Shown: positions 1,864-10,138, numbered from the stretch's first letter. The stretch: DNA of 52,745 nucleotides from Candidatus Woesearchaeota archaeon (GCA_016181275.1 JACOZQ010000024.1:661-53405), one strand, 5' to 3'. Notes: generated from the letters alone by a model not told the origin. Numbers and translations: made by a program.

Positions 1864-3651
1864 ATGGTGTTTTTGGGTACTATGAAGGGGTTAAAAATAA
1901 TGAATCAATGGCTTTTAGATATAATAAGAGATTTCCAAACTTTACCACTTATTAGAAGATTTAATTCTGATTATTATGAAATAAATAGAATTTCCCTCGA
2001 AAAAAGAATTTCATTTGAAAATGCTGTTAGAGCATATCAAGCAAATGAAGCTGCAAGAATATTATTACAATTAAACAGACAGCAAGCTGAAAAAGATTTG
2101 GATCAAAGAAGAGAAATCGTTGAAAGAGTTCTATCTGAAAATAAAAAAGATAACTTGAGTTTGAGAAAAAGAATTGTTTTCAGCGGGAATAAAGGCGGTG
2201 TTGGAAAAACAACTCTAATGGTTCAGAGCCTTGGAGCATTTATTGAACTATTATCTCCTTTTATTGAAAAATATAGATTATCTCTTGCTGGCATTGAGGC
2301 AGACTTGTCAGATCCTCAAGTTGGATATCATTTTTCAAGCTGGATGCCAAATCTTCCTCTTGATAATCCTGATCTTAGCGAAGTTCGCTTCTTAAATTTC
2401 TTTGGATTTGAAAACAAAGATAGGGATGCGGCCGAGTTATTAAAAGAATGTTTGTATCCTGTTCCACAATTTGAAGGTGTTTATCTAGCTGCAATTCCTG
2501 AAAATCAATTCGTTTTGGAAACATTAGCTACTCTCCTTGGAGAAGGAAAAGATTATGTTGATAATATGTATAGATTAGCTCGCGGTTTTAGAAATTTAGA
2601 TGCTGATTTTGTTTTTGCTGATGTTCGAGCTGGCAGAACACCTCACGAAGTATTGAGCTTCTGGCATGATTCAGATGTAAGGGTTGGAAGCCATATGGCA
2701 GATGATGATTCAATAATACCTTTAGTAAATTTACTGCAAAATTCGCAAAGGACAAATATTTTACATACAGCAAGAGGAATGATCAATGAAGAGTATAATG
2801 GAAAGATTTTTACATTAGAAGCACAGTCGGGAGAAATTACTGAGAGAATAAAAGAGAAATCTTTGCTGATTGAGAACTTGGATGAGAAAATCAAACCCCT
2901 TGAAGAAAAAATCTATGCAGCTGAAGAAGAAAGAAAAAGATTGAATCCTCAAATTAGGGAGAAAACTAATTTATTGAAAAGCCTTGAAGGCAATGAAAGT
3001 GTTGGAGAAATTTATAGAATACAATCTGATGAGCTCAAAAGTCTGAAAGATGGAAAACAGAAAATAGATGCAAAATTGAAGTCGTTTAGAAAAGAGATTA
3101 CATCTCCTAAAATTGAAAGGAATAGATATTCTGCTGAAAGAGATAATTTGAAAGAAAGAGGAGACGATTATAATGCAAGAGCTGCTGGCCTGAGGGCAAC
3201 AAGGGATAAAACACTGGAGGAATTAAAAGGCTTGAGAAGTCTAGCAGAAATAGAATCAAAGTTTAGAGAATTAAATGAATCCGGCGAGCTTAATCTTCAA
3301 TTGGCATATTCAGAGCATCCAGTAATACAAGTTCCGAATATAATAAAGGCTGACTTTTCACATGCAGCTTCAATAGCGCATGATACAATTGTTGAACTGA
3401 TGGTGAAAGAAGGATTTCCTACTTCAAATATATATCCTGTAATTGGGTCTGATGGGAAATATAAAAATAGGGATTTCTTCATTGATTATTCTGGACATGT
3501 TATAGACAGCAGAAAAAAAGGAATTCCTATTGTTTTTAGCGATGATGAAGAAGCAAGATTCAGTCCTGCTGCTAATGAATATAGATTATTGGCATGGAAT
3601 GAATTTGTACATATGTTTAAATTAGTTGAACCGGATTTGGAGGAAAATTAA
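1864..3651 (+). CDS. ParA/MinD-family (deviant Walker A) ATPase interrupted by a long coiled-coil segment
   Basis: VFSGNKGGVGKTTL is a KGGxGK[ST] deviant Walker A. AGIEADLSDP and FVFADVRAG look like the A' and B motifs. About 160 aa of heptad-like charged sequence (nt ~2830-3300) follows. After it comes a C-terminal segment that again resembles the end of the ParA fold. Alternative starts are at 1882 and 1900. Confidence 0.75.
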   Translation: MVFLGTMKGLKIMNQWLLDIIRDFQTLPLIRRFNSDYYEINRISLEKRISFENAVRAYQANEAARILLQLNRQQAEKDLDQRREIVERVLSENKKDNLSLRKRIVFSGNKGGVGKTTLMVQSLGAFIELLSPFIEKYRLSLAGIEADLSDPQVGYHFSSWMPNLPLDNPDLSEVRFLNFFGFENKDRDAAELLKECLYPVPQFEGVYLAAIPENQFVLETLATLLGEGKDYVDNMYRLARGFRNLDADFVFADVRAGRTPHEVLSFWHDSDVRVGSHMADDDSIIPLVNLLQNSQRTNILHTARGMINEEYNGKIFTLEAQSGEITERIKEKSLLIENLDEKIKPLEEKIYAAEEERKRLNPQIREKTNLLKSLEGNESVGEIYRIQSDELKSLKDGKQKIDAKLKSFRKEITSPKIERNRYSAERDNLKERGDDYNARAAGLRATRDKTLEELKGLRSLAEIESKFRELNESGELNLQLAYSEHPVIQVPNIIKADFSHAASIAHDTIVELMVKEGFPTSNIYPVIGSDGKYKNRDFFIDYSGHVIDSRKKGIPIVFSDDEEARFSPAANEYRLLAWNEFVHMFKLVEPDLEEN

Positions 3652-3652
3652 T

Positions 3653-4402
3653 ATGAGTAATGAAAGAATAGAACTAATAGGAAGGAGAATTGCAGAAGCA
3701 GAACCAGTCCAAATTTATGAAGAAACAAAAGAGGATCACAAAAGATATTGGAACTTAGGAAGATTAGGTTATGCTGCTCTTGCCGCGGTCGTTGTTATTG
3801 GGAGTGGTGCAATTTTACATACTTCTGGAAAAAGCACTGCTATAAGAAGAATAGTAGAACCATTGAGATCAACAATTGAAGCACTTGCAAGTGAAAATGC
3901 AGGATTAAAAAATATAAATGAAAGATTGAATAATAATATTACATCATTAACTACTGAAAGAGATTCTTTAAGAGAGTCTAATGAAGGAATATTAAATTTT
4001 AGCAGAGAATATGTTAAAAAAAGCCAAGAAAAACTTATCTATGCTCAAAGAGCAAATGCTGCCTTGCTTGAATCATATCCTGATGACATAAGAAGCAATG
4101 ACTATAAATATTCTGAGAGAACTCAAAATGGAAAGAGAGTTGCTCAGCTGGAGATTATAGCTTATTCTACAGAAGATCCTGAAGAGCTTGCAAAAAGGTT
4201 TGAAACTAAAAAAGGATTTGAGGAAAAATATCCTGGTTTGCTGGATAAAGCTGAAAAAATAAAACAGATTGATCTGAGAAAGTTGAGGCTTACTGAAAAT
4301 GATGACAATGTTTTCGAAATAAGACCTACATACGAAGGAGAGACAACAGCTGACACAACTTTCACATACAGGCATCTTGACTTAATAAATTATAGAAAAT
4401 GA
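3653..4402 (+). CDS. Bitopic membrane protein with a coiled-coil ectodomain
   Basis: GGAGG at 3639-3643 precedes ATG 3653, which lies 1 nt after the upstream TAA. There is one hydrophobic span (LGYAALAAVVVIGSGAIL) after a basic N-terminus. A heptad-rich stretch follows (IEALASENAGLKNINERLNNNITSLTTERDSL). Confidence 0.7.
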   Translation: MSNERIELIGRRIAEAEPVQIYEETKEDHKRYWNLGRLGYAALAAVVVIGSGAILHTSGKSTAIRRIVEPLRSTIEALASENAGLKNINERLNNNITSLTTERDSLRESNEGILNFSREYVKKSQEKLIYAQRANAALLESYPDDIRSNDYKYSERTQNGKRVAQLEIIAYSTEDPEELAKRFETKKGFEEKYPGLLDKAEKIKQIDLRKLRLTENDDNVFEIRPTYEGETTADTTFTYRHLDLINYRK

Positions 4403-8752: not shown

Positions 8753-8848
8753 ATTATTGCTGGTGTTATTACTGCCAGTGACAATTTACCACCAAAAGGT
8801 TTATAAACAATGTTTAACTATAAAATAACAACATTTAGGGGGTTTAAA

Positions 8849-10138
8849 ATGAGATTTAATGCATTAAGTATCATGGTGATATTCTTGCTAGCTATGGTTA
8901 GCACAGTTTCAGCTGGAGTAAGTCCAGACTACGACATTGACAAAGTTGAGATTGATGGAAGAATTGTAAGTGAATCAGATGTAAGCTTTATAACATTGGA
9001 AAGAGGAGACAGCCTTGATTTAGATATCTGGGTTACTGGAAAATCAACTGGTGCTGTGAAAGATGATATAAAAGTCAAAGCATGGATCGGCGGATATGAG
9101 TATGGCGATGTTGCTGAAAATACAAAAATTTTCAAAGTTGAGCCTAATGGCATCTACAAAAAAACTTTAAGTGTTTCTCTGCCTGATGACTTAGATGCTG
9201 ATGACAATGGTAATTCTGAGAAATATACTTTGCATGTTGAAGCATTTGATAGTGACAATGAAGTAAGAAAGAGTTTCAGCTTGAGAGTAGAAGAGAGCAT
9301 GCATGATTTAAGATTAATTGATGTCATCTTCAGACCAGGAACTATTGTTAACGCTGGCGACATGCTGTTCACAACTGTTAGAGTTGAAAACATGGGCGAC
9401 AAGAAAGAAGAAGACGTTCAAGTAAGAGTTTCCATACCAGAATTAGGATTTGTCGCAAGAGACTATATTGACGAATTAGTTCCTCATGACTCTAATAATG
9501 ATGACGAGGAAAAATCCGATGATATAGACCTATTCGGCAGAATTCCAAGAAATGCAAGATCTGGCGAGTATGATGTTAAAGTTGAATTGATCTTTAACAG
9601 AGGACATGATTCAATCAGCGAAAACCACAGATTAATAATTGAAGGAGAGGGTGTTGCTGCTGATACTGACTCTGTTGTCAGCGTAGATTCAACAAGAAAA
9701 GACGCTAAAGTTGGCGAAACTGTTTCATATAAAGTTATGATTGCTAACTTTGGAGACGAAAGAACAACTTACTCTGCTGAAGTATCTGGCGCAGGAGCAT
9801 GGGGAAGCGTTTCTGTTGACCCTGCATTTGTAACACTAAACGCTGGAGAAACTGGCGAGCTATTTGTAAGAACAACTCCTAATACAGCTGGCGAACAGGC
9901 TTTCACTGTAAAAGTAAAAGCTAACGGCCAAACTATAAAGGAGATGAACTTGCAGACTGGTGTTGCTTCTGGAAGCGATGTTAGAAGAGGATTAGAAATC
10001 GGATTCGCTGTACTGGCAATCTTATTGGTAATCCTTGGCTTGATAATTGCCTTCACAAAATTAAGAGGCAATGGTTCTGAAGAAGAGCCTGAGATGGGCG
10101 CTGGAGAAGAGAGAGAAGCAGGACAGACTTATTACTAA
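8849..10138 (+). CDS. S-layer/CARDB-type surface protein with a C-terminal transmembrane anchor
   Basis: GGGGG precedes ATG 8849. The signal peptide is MRFNALSIMVIFLLAMVSTVSA. CARDB-like strands are present (VRVENMGDKKEEDVQVRVSIPE; VMIANFGDERTTYSAEV). The C-terminal TM span GFAVLAILLVILGLIIAF is followed by an acidic tail. Confidence 0.8.
   Translation: MRFNALSIMVIFLLAMVSTVSAGVSPDYDIDKVEIDGRIVSESDVSFITLERGDSLDLDIWVTGKSTGAVKDDIKVKAWIGGYEYGDVAENTKIFKVEPNGIYKKTLSVSLPDDLDADDNGNSEKYTLHVEAFDSDNEVRKSFSLRVEESMHDLRLIDVIFRPGTIVNAGDMLFTTVRVENMGDKKEEDVQVRVSIPELGFVARDYIDELVPHDSNNDDEEKSDDIDLFGRIPRNARSGEYDVKVELIFNRGHDSISENHRLIIEGEGVAADTDSVVSVDSTRKDAKVGETVSYKVMIANFGDERTTYSAEVSGAGAWGSVSVDPAFVTLNAGETGELFVRTTPNTAGEQAFTVKVKANGQTIKEMNLQTGVASGSDVRRGLEIGFAVLAILLVILGLIIAFTKLRGNGSEEEPEMGAGEEREAGQTYY

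Follow-up and report, generated by a model that had tools for sequence, protein, structure and literature searches.

The MinD/ParA family includes several placement ATPases of envelope machines, such as TadZ/CpaE of Tad pili, BcsQ of cellulose secretion, FlhG/FleN and the archaeal MinD4, and ATPases of this type form ATP-dependent dimers. Among archaeal surfaces, a canopy and a membrane stalk (SlaA/SlaB) are known from the Sulfolobales, and hypervariable surface proteins with immunoglobulin-like (Ig) domains have been described in Thermococcales under the name VARTIG (PMC8416519). For DPANN archaea, no S-layer protein has been experimentally determined so far (bioRxiv 10.1101/2023.10.27.564410). 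Here we analyse a five-gene cluster, g1 to g5, at positions 1864-10138 of a stretch of 52,745 nt from a Candidatus Woesearchaeota archaeon (GCA_016181275.1 JACOZQ010000024.1:661-53405), the whole of which (52.7 kb) is called the window below. In it, a MinD/ParA-type ATPase (g1) precedes a bitopic membrane protein, a secreted protein, an adhesin-like protein and a putative S-layer protein. The explanation that we favour, although we would put it slightly short of an even chance, is that an S-layer locus carries an accessory operon specific to the clade, whose ATPase and bitopic partner would place or assemble a variable adhesin docked in the S-layer. The locus is thus a candidate for a surface-identity or attachment module, not an ordinary gene neighbourhood. 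The original prediction, made from this sequence only, had linked a coiled-coil ParA/MinD ATPase to a membrane coiled-coil protein and to giant surface proteins; cassette replacement, a shared operator and the split of the ATPase by a coiled coil are features beyond that first reading. The elements in question are as follows.

1792 to 1808, plus strand: palindrome copy 1, TGTTAC-TGCTG-GTGACA, upstream of the g1 promoter
1851 to 1864, plus strand: promoter of g1-g4, B recognition element (BRE)/TATA-like, GAAATATTTATAAA, from the upstream alignment
1900 to 3651, plus strand: g1, divergent MinD/ParA-type ATPase of the long class (ORF-finder start at 1864)
3653 to 4402, plus strand: g2, type II bitopic membrane protein
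4399 to 6042, plus strand: g3, secreted two-domain protein
6035 to 8092, plus strand: variable N-terminal part of g4, adhesin-like modules
8093 to 8752, plus strand: conserved C-terminal part of g4, about 220 aa, proposed S-layer docking module
8767 to 8783, plus strand: palindrome copy 2, TATTAC-TGCCA-GTGACA, about 10 nt 5' of the g5 BRE/TATA
8795 to 8807, plus strand: promoter of g5, BRE/TATA-like, AAAGGTTTATAAA, followed by a GGGGGT Shine-Dalgarno sequence at 8839-8844
8849 to 10138, plus strand: g5, conserved putative S-layer protein
10147 to 10161, plus strand: oligo-T tracts, T7-C-T7, directly 3' of the g5 stop, likely archaeal terminator

Five plus-strand open reading frames (ORF1 to ORF5, corresponding to g1 to g5) were confirmed by ORF finding, at 1864-3651, 3653-4402, 4399-6042, 6035-8752 and 8849-10138; ATG 3653 is internal to a TTG-start ORF (3626-4402), and ATG 8849 to an ORF at 8810-10138. 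The tight same-strand packing that had been predicted is present. The TAA of g1 (3649-3651) is separated by 1 nt from ATG 3653, g2 and g3 share an ATGA overlap (4399-4402), and g3 and g4 overlap by 8 nt (6035-6042). The spacer between g4 and g5 (8753-8848) measures 96 nt, and not the approximately 97 nt given before. Behind the g5 stop (TAA, 10136-10138) the announced T-rich tract was found; oligo-T tracts serve as terminators in archaea. The two surface proteins hardly deserve to be called giant, as they have only 905 aa (g4) and 429 aa (g5).

Related contigs were traced from g3 homologues and g1 relatives, and an alignment of g5 was used to scan one genome per GTDB species; lineages or contigs found in this way bear L-numbers, and the genomes come from groundwater and sediment samples. 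The same gene order occurs in L001, L005, L010/L014 (which are the same), L013, L015, L016 and L017, and the architecture is present in at least eight related Woesearchaeota lineages despite protein identities of 20-50%. Wherever the contig suffices, the order is the ATPase, a bitopic protein of about 230-290 aa, a signal-peptide protein of about 380-525 aa, a protein of about 870-1590 aa and g5 of about 430 aa. The g1/g2 and g2/g3 junctions of these relatives are 1-nt gaps or 4-nt overlaps, and their g3/g4 junctions range from a 5-nt gap to a 4-nt overlap. On the short partial contig L009, g1 is followed, after 121 nt, by a one-pass membrane ORF, and no more is visible. The recurrence of order and of tight junctions across lineages bears out the view of the cluster as a conserved, translationally coupled unit. 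Moreover, an ATPase that is never syntenic with the downstream genes, which would have spoken against the original prediction, is not what was found, because its homologues adjoin the same kinds of downstream gene wherever the contig allows a view.

The scan with g5 yielded 27 loci in metagenome-assembled genomes (MAGs) of Woesearchaeota, Nanoarchaeia and Pacearchaeota. The full arrangement was seen only where g5 is at least about 67% identical to the window copy (L014, L015, L016 and L017; the L018 contig is truncated). In more distant lineages, a g4-like signal-peptide protein is kept in front of g5, as judged by ORF calling and phmmer, and no ORF with the motif KGGxGK[ST] was found within 10 kb. 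Since these lineages have the g4-like gene and g5 but no such ORF, g5 and, more loosely, g4 are the core of the locus, and g1-g3 are an addition specific to a narrow clade of Woesearchaeales.

The beginning of the operon could be defined from an alignment of ten promoter regions from six lineages. The BRE/TATA-like element at 1851-1864 covers the ATG at 1864 chosen by the ORF finder, and its columns AAA..TTTA.AAA are invariant in all ten regions; a conserved GGGGTT Shine-Dalgarno sequence at 1887-1892 lies 6-9 nt 5' of the start used in all relatives. Because the conserved TATA element overlaps position 1864 and the conserved Shine-Dalgarno sequence precedes the start of the relatives, the true start of ORF1 is most probably ATG 1900, giving a protein of 583 aa, and not 1864 as originally assumed. 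In the public annotation, g1 ('hypothetical protein HYT56_02905 [Candidatus Woesearchaeota archaeon]') has 595 aa, that is, it starts at ATG 1864, as with the ORF finder. The same annotation begins g3 at the seventh codon (541 aa), yet relatives share the start at 4399 within the ATGA overlap.

In the same alignment, the BRE/TATA element in the 96-nt spacer before g5 is as strongly conserved as that of g1. It is an internal promoter of the kind whose presence had been named as an argument against a single five-gene unit. No oligo-T tract was found between ORF4 and ORF5. With a conserved promoter in the gap between these ORFs, and an oligo-T tract only after ORF5, the simplest reading is that of two nested transcription units, one running from the first promoter (P1) through g1-g4 and possibly into g5, and the other from its own promoter (P5) through g5. 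Thus, of the proposed five-gene unit, the coupled part g1-g4 stands, and ORF5, which has its own promoter and is present in many lineages lacking the ATPase, does not belong to it in the same sense; the whole is better described as a g1-g4 accessory operon in front of a core S-layer gene and co-regulated with it. Scans for sigma-70 promoters and intrinsic terminators gave counts at chance level, and these models do not apply to archaea.

The suggestion of co-regulation comes from a palindrome with the consensus TGTYAC-N5-GTGACA, which occurs 5' of both BRE/TATA elements. Its 19-nt version has exactly two sites in the 52.7-kb window, and none of 100 shuffles gave two or more matches. The palindrome lies 103-109 nt 5' of the g1 ATG in L001, L010/L014, L016 and L017, with variants upstream of g1 in L005 and in L015 (82 nt upstream), and 81-86 nt 5' of the g5 ATG in L001, L005, L010/L014, L016, L017 and L018. 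Among 22 distant lineages without g1, 21 have no match at the g5 position, and the remaining one (L039) has a single loose, degenerate match at -92. Apart from this degenerate match, the palindrome precedes g5 only in lineages that also carry g1, and both promoters share it as an operator-like motif. Sites upstream of BRE/TATA are typical for archaeal activators.

A marked departure from an ordinary gene neighbourhood is seen when whole loci are compared. Between the window and L001, the flanks and the intergenic region up to 1895 are 78-87% identical at the nucleotide level, similarity is gone from 1896 to 8104 except for a 69% stretch at 4294-4910, and an identity of 87% is reached again at 8105-10161. 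Similarity is therefore lost from the start of g1 to about 220 codons before the stop of g4. Identities of the individual products are as follows.

Window and L001: g5 93%, g4 C-terminal part 82%, g4 N-terminal part 40%, g3 40%, g2 35%, g1 24%
L001 and L005: g5 65%, g4 C-terminal part 53%, g4 N-terminal part 71%, g3 53%, g2 30%, g1 49%
L010 and L015: g5 83%, g4 C-terminal part 71%, g4 N-terminal part 72%, g3 35%, g2 20%, g1 22%

A block of about 6.2 kb with 20-50% protein identity is thus embedded in a backbone that is 80-93% identical; the gene trees are incongruent with the backbone, and the two classes into which g1 falls, long and short, do not track the backbone phylogeny. These comparisons show that g1, g2, g3 and the N-terminal part of g4 together act as a cassette exchanged between lineages by recombination. 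Because both the gene identities and the g1 classes are incongruent with the backbone, exchange in blocks is required, with breakpoints at the start of g1, between g3 and g4, and some 220 codons ahead of the end of g4. Where different samples have yielded contigs of one lineage, these agree over the cluster at 99.6-100% identity. A search for template and variable repeats of the type found with diversity-generating retroelements (DGR) revealed no direct repeats of at least 40 nt beyond chance-level pairs. DGR or other hypermutation was rejected on both of these grounds. An element integrated at the upstream tRNA gene was rejected as well, as there is no integrase and a conserved promoter region separates the tRNA from the variable block. 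Scans of viral contigs with g3 and g5 gave no matches, and nothing therefore points to an origin from a virus or a mobile element.

Deep allelic divergence and phylogenetic incongruence of a block inside a conserved backbone could also be accounted for by a surface-identity or conflict cassette, serving recognition or evasion of viruses, in which nothing is positioned and the ATPase is an assembly chaperone or energiser, or a mere hitch-hiker. Such logic would be similar to that of VARTIG or of replacement-type flexible islands. It agrees with the extracytoplasmic location of the products of three of the four variable genes, and the stability within populations is what fixed alternative alleles would show. 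Hitch-hiking, however, leaves unexplained why an ATPase and a bitopic protein occupy the first two positions in every variant, even after replacement of one ATPase class by the other. PADLOC and PHROGs searches returned coiled-coil or P-loop noise only, and the lack of any match to a toxin, immunity or defence family also tells against a conflict cassette. As a separate account we find it rather unlikely; it is compatible with the explanation favoured here, since the two are not mutually exclusive.

The favoured explanation, an accessory operon that places or assembles an S-layer-docked adhesin, depends first of all on the nature of g1. Its Walker A motif, GNKGGVGKTT, is of the deviant type with the signature Lys, and the K, G, G and K residues are invariant in five long-class members and in the short class; two relatives have KGGxAK[ST] in place of KGGxGK[ST]. 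The Asp of the Walker B region (DFVFAD) is invariant in the alignment, and the acidic switch I reads [ED]-x-[DN], with Asn at the second position in three relatives. Against Pfam, g1 of the window stays below threshold (CbiA, E = 0.17; AAA_31, E = 0.16), and its sole match above noise is to the NCBIfam model AAA_KGGVGR (E = 2e-5, 25 bits, where the cutoff is 90). Within the family, CbiA and AAA_31 are matched at E <= 1 by each of the five members and ParA by four, with best E-values of 1e-8 to 1e-10, and despite these values the relatives remain far under the NCBIfam cutoffs. A search of the Protein Data Bank (PDB) with the g1 family profile found Mrp/ApbC, Soj, MinD, FleN and MipZ over the region from Walker A to switch I. 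Hence the assignment of ORF1 to the ParA/MinD ATPases with deviant Walker A is supported by the motif and by the Walker B Asp, though the protein is very divergent (Pfam E = 0.16-0.17).

An AlphaFold2 (AF2) model of g1 (pLDDT 76.7) consists of a long N-terminal helix, an alpha/beta core, two helices (residues 269-362 and 366-443) and a C-terminal part which, in the model, completes a MinD-like fold. In the model, the two helices pack antiparallel into a coiled-coil hairpin of about 175 aa, which interrupts the fold past the strand next after Walker B. Foldseek matched the core to ParA2 (7npf), BcsQ (6yay_B) and MinD (4v02_B, 3r9j_A) at probabilities of 0.99-1.0, with weak E-values (3.7e-3 or higher) and target-normalised TM-scores of only 0.3-0.4, and the hairpin to SMC arms and the dynein stalk. 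Profile matches of g1 to Rad50/SMC are confined to the coiled coil. A MinD core with an inserted coiled-coil arm would be a candidate for a new fold variant. No transmembrane (TM) segment is predicted in g1. A pair of bacterial tyrosine kinase (BY-kinase) and polysaccharide co-polymerase (PCP), of the Wzc or CapAB kind, was considered and rejected: the end of g1 (...FKLVEPDLEEN) is without a Tyr cluster and g2 has one TM segment only. Models eps_fam and EpsG are matched by g1 at the level of the P-loop only.

The long, coiled-coil class of g1 comprises the proteins of the window, L009, L010 and L013, and the short class, of 356-428 aa, those of L001, L005, L015, L016 and L017. BLAST between the classes aligns the P-loop alone; hhalign extends over the core (97.4%, E = 1.3e-11), and the two classes are homologous across the P-loop core. 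Their N-terminal regions are unrelated. An exhaustive phmmer search of 1.84 billion (1.84e9) representative proteins found just four relatives of g1, three of which could be placed on contigs, all three within the same locus type. In word-index homology searches, neither full-length ORF1 nor its residues 1-310 retrieved anything but the protein itself, and among at least 80 loci listed from a metagenome scan with the short-class alignment, all match little beyond the P-loop and the adjacent N-terminal core. With merely four relatives among so many proteins, g1 is not a housekeeping ParA.

This rarity bears on the possibility that the genes are neighbours by descent, with g1-g3 as a MinD-type system that has no part in the S-layer, serves for example division, shape or the positioning of cargo, and lies beside the S-layer genes only through the synteny of close relatives. 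It would be in keeping with the flanking genes for MsrB, a cold-shock-domain (CSD) protein, DUF192 and SMC, common to all cluster-bearing genomes, and with the separate promoter of g5. A housekeeping MinD, however, would not be so divergent or rare. Besides, the tight g3/g4 junctions (the 8-nt overlap of the window and the 5-nt gap to 4-nt overlap of its relatives), the operator shared by both promoters only where g1 is present, and the swapping of g1-g3 and the N-terminal part of g4 in blocks that vary together would all be odd among accidental neighbours, and we consider this possibility quite unlikely.

A ParA-type partition system or autoregulator, with g1 binding the palindromes as operator or centromere-like sites, is highly improbable in our opinion. 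The palindrome does lie before g1, as in autoregulated par operons, and co-occurs with it, and short-class g1 proteins show weak matches to the SopA profile that include the region before Walker A. Yet no ParB-like or other DNA-binding partner was found, no helix-turn-helix family was detected, the N-terminus of the window protein is modelled as one long helix, and the N-terminal regions are unrelated between the g1 classes, the operator being the same. Plasmid partition with an adjacent ParB and centromere had been named as an argument against the original prediction; the gene downstream of g1 encodes a membrane protein, and the sole repeat is the palindrome, which is also found before g5.

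Placement of an adhesin, as proposed here, would require a link from the cytoplasm to the surface, and g2 has the topology for it. A cytoplasmic tail of about 36 aa, short and both basic and acidic, is followed by a single TM segment at about residues 37-57 (nt 3761-3823). Outside the membrane come a heptad-rich coiled coil and, at the C-terminus, a domain of about 110 aa that is conserved and shows the pattern SYPxEIR...YPGL...FTYKH.LIN. The prediction of a bitopic coiled-coil membrane protein thus holds, and in each of the lineages examined the gene after g1 encodes a one-pass membrane protein, whichever the g1 class. Family libraries contain no family matching g2, and profile searches against PDB sequences with g2, g3, g5 and the C-terminal domain of g3 were uninformative.

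In the third product, a signal peptide and about 270 aa of conserved N-terminal domain are followed by a low-complexity linker rich in Pro, Ala and Gln, and by an all-beta C-terminal domain of about 180 aa rich in Gly and aromatic residues. Its AF2 model, from an alignment of three sequences, has long C-terminal strands and, at pLDDT 37.5, is unusable for a fold search. There is no match to outer-membrane-protein (OMP) families for g3 of the window itself; among its relatives, the L010 homologue matches OMP_b-brl (E = 5e-4, 20.6 bits, under the cutoff of 28.7), that of L017 matches Autotransporter (E = 0.045, sub-threshold), and a sub-threshold match to Pom was also seen. Two of seven homologues end in YRF; in others, a Phe or Tyr stands 3-6 residues before the C-terminus. 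A profile of the C-terminal domains found no OMP in the PDB. The predicted signal-peptide protein is thus confirmed; its 'beta-barrel-like C-terminus' is weakly supported, by sub-threshold matches of relatives, alongside a model of low confidence and a negative PDB search.

These observations are pertinent to the idea of a trans-envelope, secretion-like tripartite apparatus, in which g3 would be an OMP-like barrel in an outer layer or in the membrane of a partner cell and the adhesin would be the cargo. The gene order (an ATPase, a bitopic coiled coil, a beta-rich signal-peptide protein and a large Ig-repeat adhesin) fits it, as do the OMP_b-brl, Pom and Autotransporter beta-domain matches and the two relatives ending in ...YRF-COOH. 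It is difficult to reconcile with g1, a soluble SIMIBI ATPase without a TM channel, and with the Sec-type signal peptide that g4 has of its own. No HlyD or TolC family signal was found, the PDB search with the g3 C-terminal domains and the low confidence of the g3 model lend it no help, and no outer membrane is known in Woesearchaeota. We therefore take such an apparatus to be very unlikely.

For the accessory-operon explanation, the surface end of the system is provided by g4 and g5. Three Pfam domains of g4 exceed threshold (Big_9, He_PIG and Dockerin_1), in agreement with the adhesin-like modular protein foreseen for ORF4, and PKD (PKD_4), cadherin-like and MopE matches fall below it. The N-terminal part comprises a signal peptide, PKD/Ig-like modules, a dockerin-type Ca-binding pair, a MopE-like Cys motif and PQ-rich linkers, and is only 20-40% identical between most lineages. 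The C-terminal part, with Big_9/He_PIG and a CARDB-like domain, is 82% identical to that of L001 and 48-57% to those of other lineages. These C-terminal 220 aa are homologous to residues 45-204 (approximately) of g5 (BLAST E = 4e-5; hhalign 93.4%, E = 2.5e-7), and stay conserved along with g5. Because of this homology and co-conservation, the module is the obvious candidate for docking g4 into a lattice of g5.

In g5, a signal peptide and Ig/CARDB-like domains are followed by a C-terminal TM segment (residues 383-405, approximately) and an acidic cytoplasmic tail ending AGQTYY. CARDB is above threshold, and the NCBIfam model NF033506 (PACE-CTERM-PROT, 'putative S-layer protein') is matched with E = 3e-25 and 89 bits, where the cutoff is 110, over profile positions 317-612 of 627. 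Identity of g5 across cluster-bearing lineages is 65-93%. General traits of an S-layer subunit, namely a signal peptide, Ig-like domains, a membrane anchor, the distribution of a core gene and a promoter of its own, are all present, and g5 is a putative conserved, membrane-anchored S-layer-type subunit; CARDB, PACE-CTERM-PROT and the C-terminal TM segment uphold what had been said of ORF5.

A separate observation concerns the tail of g5 (window 10064-10138). In all 25 complete g5 homologues (among L014-L040), a TM helix is followed by a short acidic tail whose last residues form the motif (E)G[QKS][TS]YY. They belong to MAGs of Woesearchaeota, Nanoarchaeia and Pacearchaeota, and lineages without the ATPase module are among them. 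No other ORF of the window has an ending of this type. The tail looks like a conserved cytoplasmic sorting or anchoring signal.

One plausible course of events would then be the following. The protein g4 would be docked in the S-layer lattice through its g5-like C-terminal module, with the variable N-terminal part directed outward. As an ATP-dependent dimer, g1 would engage the short, basic cytoplasmic tail of g2, whose coiled-coil stalk and C-terminal domain would hold the secreted g3 and, together with g3, also g4. By analogy with TadZ/CpaE, BcsQ and FlhG, g1 would determine the site or the timing of assembly of the variable adhesin complex in the envelope. Exchange of the cassette would shift surface specificity, either in the choice of host or partner or in the receptor that viruses meet. 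The docking of g4, the g1-g2 contact, the assembly of g2, g3 and g4, the positioning and the shift in specificity are all inferred.

Several facts weigh against this explanation. The ATPase is extremely divergent, and some relatives carry the Gly-to-Ala change in Walker A and the Asp-to-Asn change in switch I; because of these substitutions, some copies of g1 may be poor at ATP hydrolysis. Neither a membrane-targeting helix nor a partner-binding motif was identified. The S-layer role of g5 is taken from an NCBIfam match under its cutoff, and g5 has its own promoter. Pairs of g4-like gene and g5 occur in most Woesearchaeota without a nearby KGGxGK[ST] ATPase, so the module is dispensable for making an S-layer. 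Finally, all cluster-bearing lineages are relatives with broadly syntenic flanks, and the conserved gene order is therefore weaker evidence than it would be across unrelated genomes.

A bolder version would see in the locus an ATP-controlled, envelope-spanning attachment device, composed of a MinD-like ATPase with an SMC-like arm, a bitopic stalk, an OMP-like barrel and the S-layer-docked adhesin, in which exchange of the cassette re-programmes recognition of partners or viruses. We regard it as a long shot.

As to the surroundings, the window is a chromosomal fragment of an uncultivated archaeon with a G+C content of about 32%, an intron-containing tRNA, 5S rRNA and housekeeping genes including those for SMC, ribonucleotide reductase (RNR), phosphoglycerate kinase (PGK) and Lhr. 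The tRNA gene (1608-1723, plus strand; Rfam, 47.3 bits), whose intron is long, lies 70-130 nt 5' of the g1 operator and promoter and is partly conserved in L001, L005 and L010; ARAGORN reports no tRNA in the whole window and thus misses this one. A cold-shock-domain protein (707-1096, plus strand), whose long, highly acidic C-terminal tail is rich in Asp, Glu and Ser, is encoded upstream of the locus and conserved there in relatives. Downstream of g5, the relatives have a 72-aa gene and a PIN-domain gene (L001 15850-16429, L005 11729-12308, L010 16717-17296) that look like a toxin-antitoxin pair. Since the window has in their place an ORF of 120 aa with a hydrophobic stretch (10204-10566, plus strand), the right flank of the locus is also variable. 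Further downstream, the SMC gene (13678-17097, minus strand, 1139 aa) is free of inteins in the window, and several relatives (L005, L015, L016 and L018) have an SMC of 1658-1660 aa with an intein bearing a LAGLIDADG domain. A LAGLIDADG intein also interrupts the gene of an Lhr-type helicase (22746-26927, plus strand; DEAD, WH_Lhr and DEAD_assoc). A second large predicted surface protein (48884-52438, minus strand, 1184 aa), with Laminin_G_3 and G8 domains, is unrelated to the cluster.

Little is known about how DPANN archaea build their surfaces and recognise partners, and the locus supplies concrete candidates: the probable core S-layer gene, whose C-terminal tail motif is universal, the proposed docking module that it shares with a variable adhesin, and the accessory operon, co-regulated with it and exchanged from lineage to lineage. 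If the ATPase and the bitopic protein do place the adhesin complex, spatial control of the MinD/ParA type would extend to the organisation of an archaeal surface; if the attachment device were real, its beta-barrel of the transmembrane type would be the first in use by an archaeon. For metatranscriptomic, population-genomic and structural work, the boundaries of the cassette and the operator common to both promoters can be used directly.

As the original prediction had stated, no characterised system of this composition was found in family libraries or in the literature, and literature searches found no description of the cluster. Several known systems resemble parts of it. With LapA-LapBCE and HlyBD-TolC it shares only the logic of the neighbourhood, that is, an ATPase, a bitopic coiled coil, a beta-rich protein and an Ig/Ca-binding adhesin; g1 is soluble and MinD-like instead of ABC-type, there is no homology to HlyD or TolC, g4 has a Sec signal and the organism is an archaeon. 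The nucleotide-binding fold of g1 as modelled, like that of SMC and Rad50, is separated into halves by a hairpin of two helices, here of about 80-95 residues each, but its head is of the SIMIBI (MinD-like) and not of the ABC type, the hairpin is much shorter and there is no hinge domain.

The variability of the surface proteins has a counterpart in VARTIG of Thermococcales, where, according to the parts of the description relevant here (PMC8416519), Ig-domain surface proteins are also hypervariable and breakpoints fall inside a large Ig-domain gene. The taxon and the gene content differ, an ATPase/bitopic pair is not among the VARTIG genes in those parts, and the locus presented here is tied to a core S-layer gene by a shared operator. 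Moreover, in VARTIG, as far as that account goes, it is the C-terminal Ig domain that varies, whereas g4 varies N-terminally and its C-terminal part is conserved. The SlaA/SlaB pair shows no sequence relationship to the present proteins; g2 is anchored N-terminally, and the operon has an ATPase and an extra secreted protein. The general plan is nevertheless alike, as an anchored, Ig-rich g5 is accompanied by a larger g4 that shares a domain module with it, and g2, a membrane-anchored coiled coil, could act as a stalk.

Unlike MinCDE and ParABS, g1 has no adjacent MinC or MinE, ParB-type protein or centromere repeats. From the placement ATPases of the MinD/ParA family it differs in staying under every curated family threshold, in the hairpin of about 175 aa of the long class, in its novel bitopic partner and archaeal S-layer context, and in being hypervariable and exchanged. 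These ATPases, placement factors of bacterial envelope machines in the case of TadZ, BcsQ and FlhG, are nonetheless the closest functional counterparts of g1, which has their deviant Walker A core, with BcsQ, MinD and ParA2 as its best globular structural matches, and it resides in an operon with membrane and secreted components of the envelope, not with DNA-binding partners.

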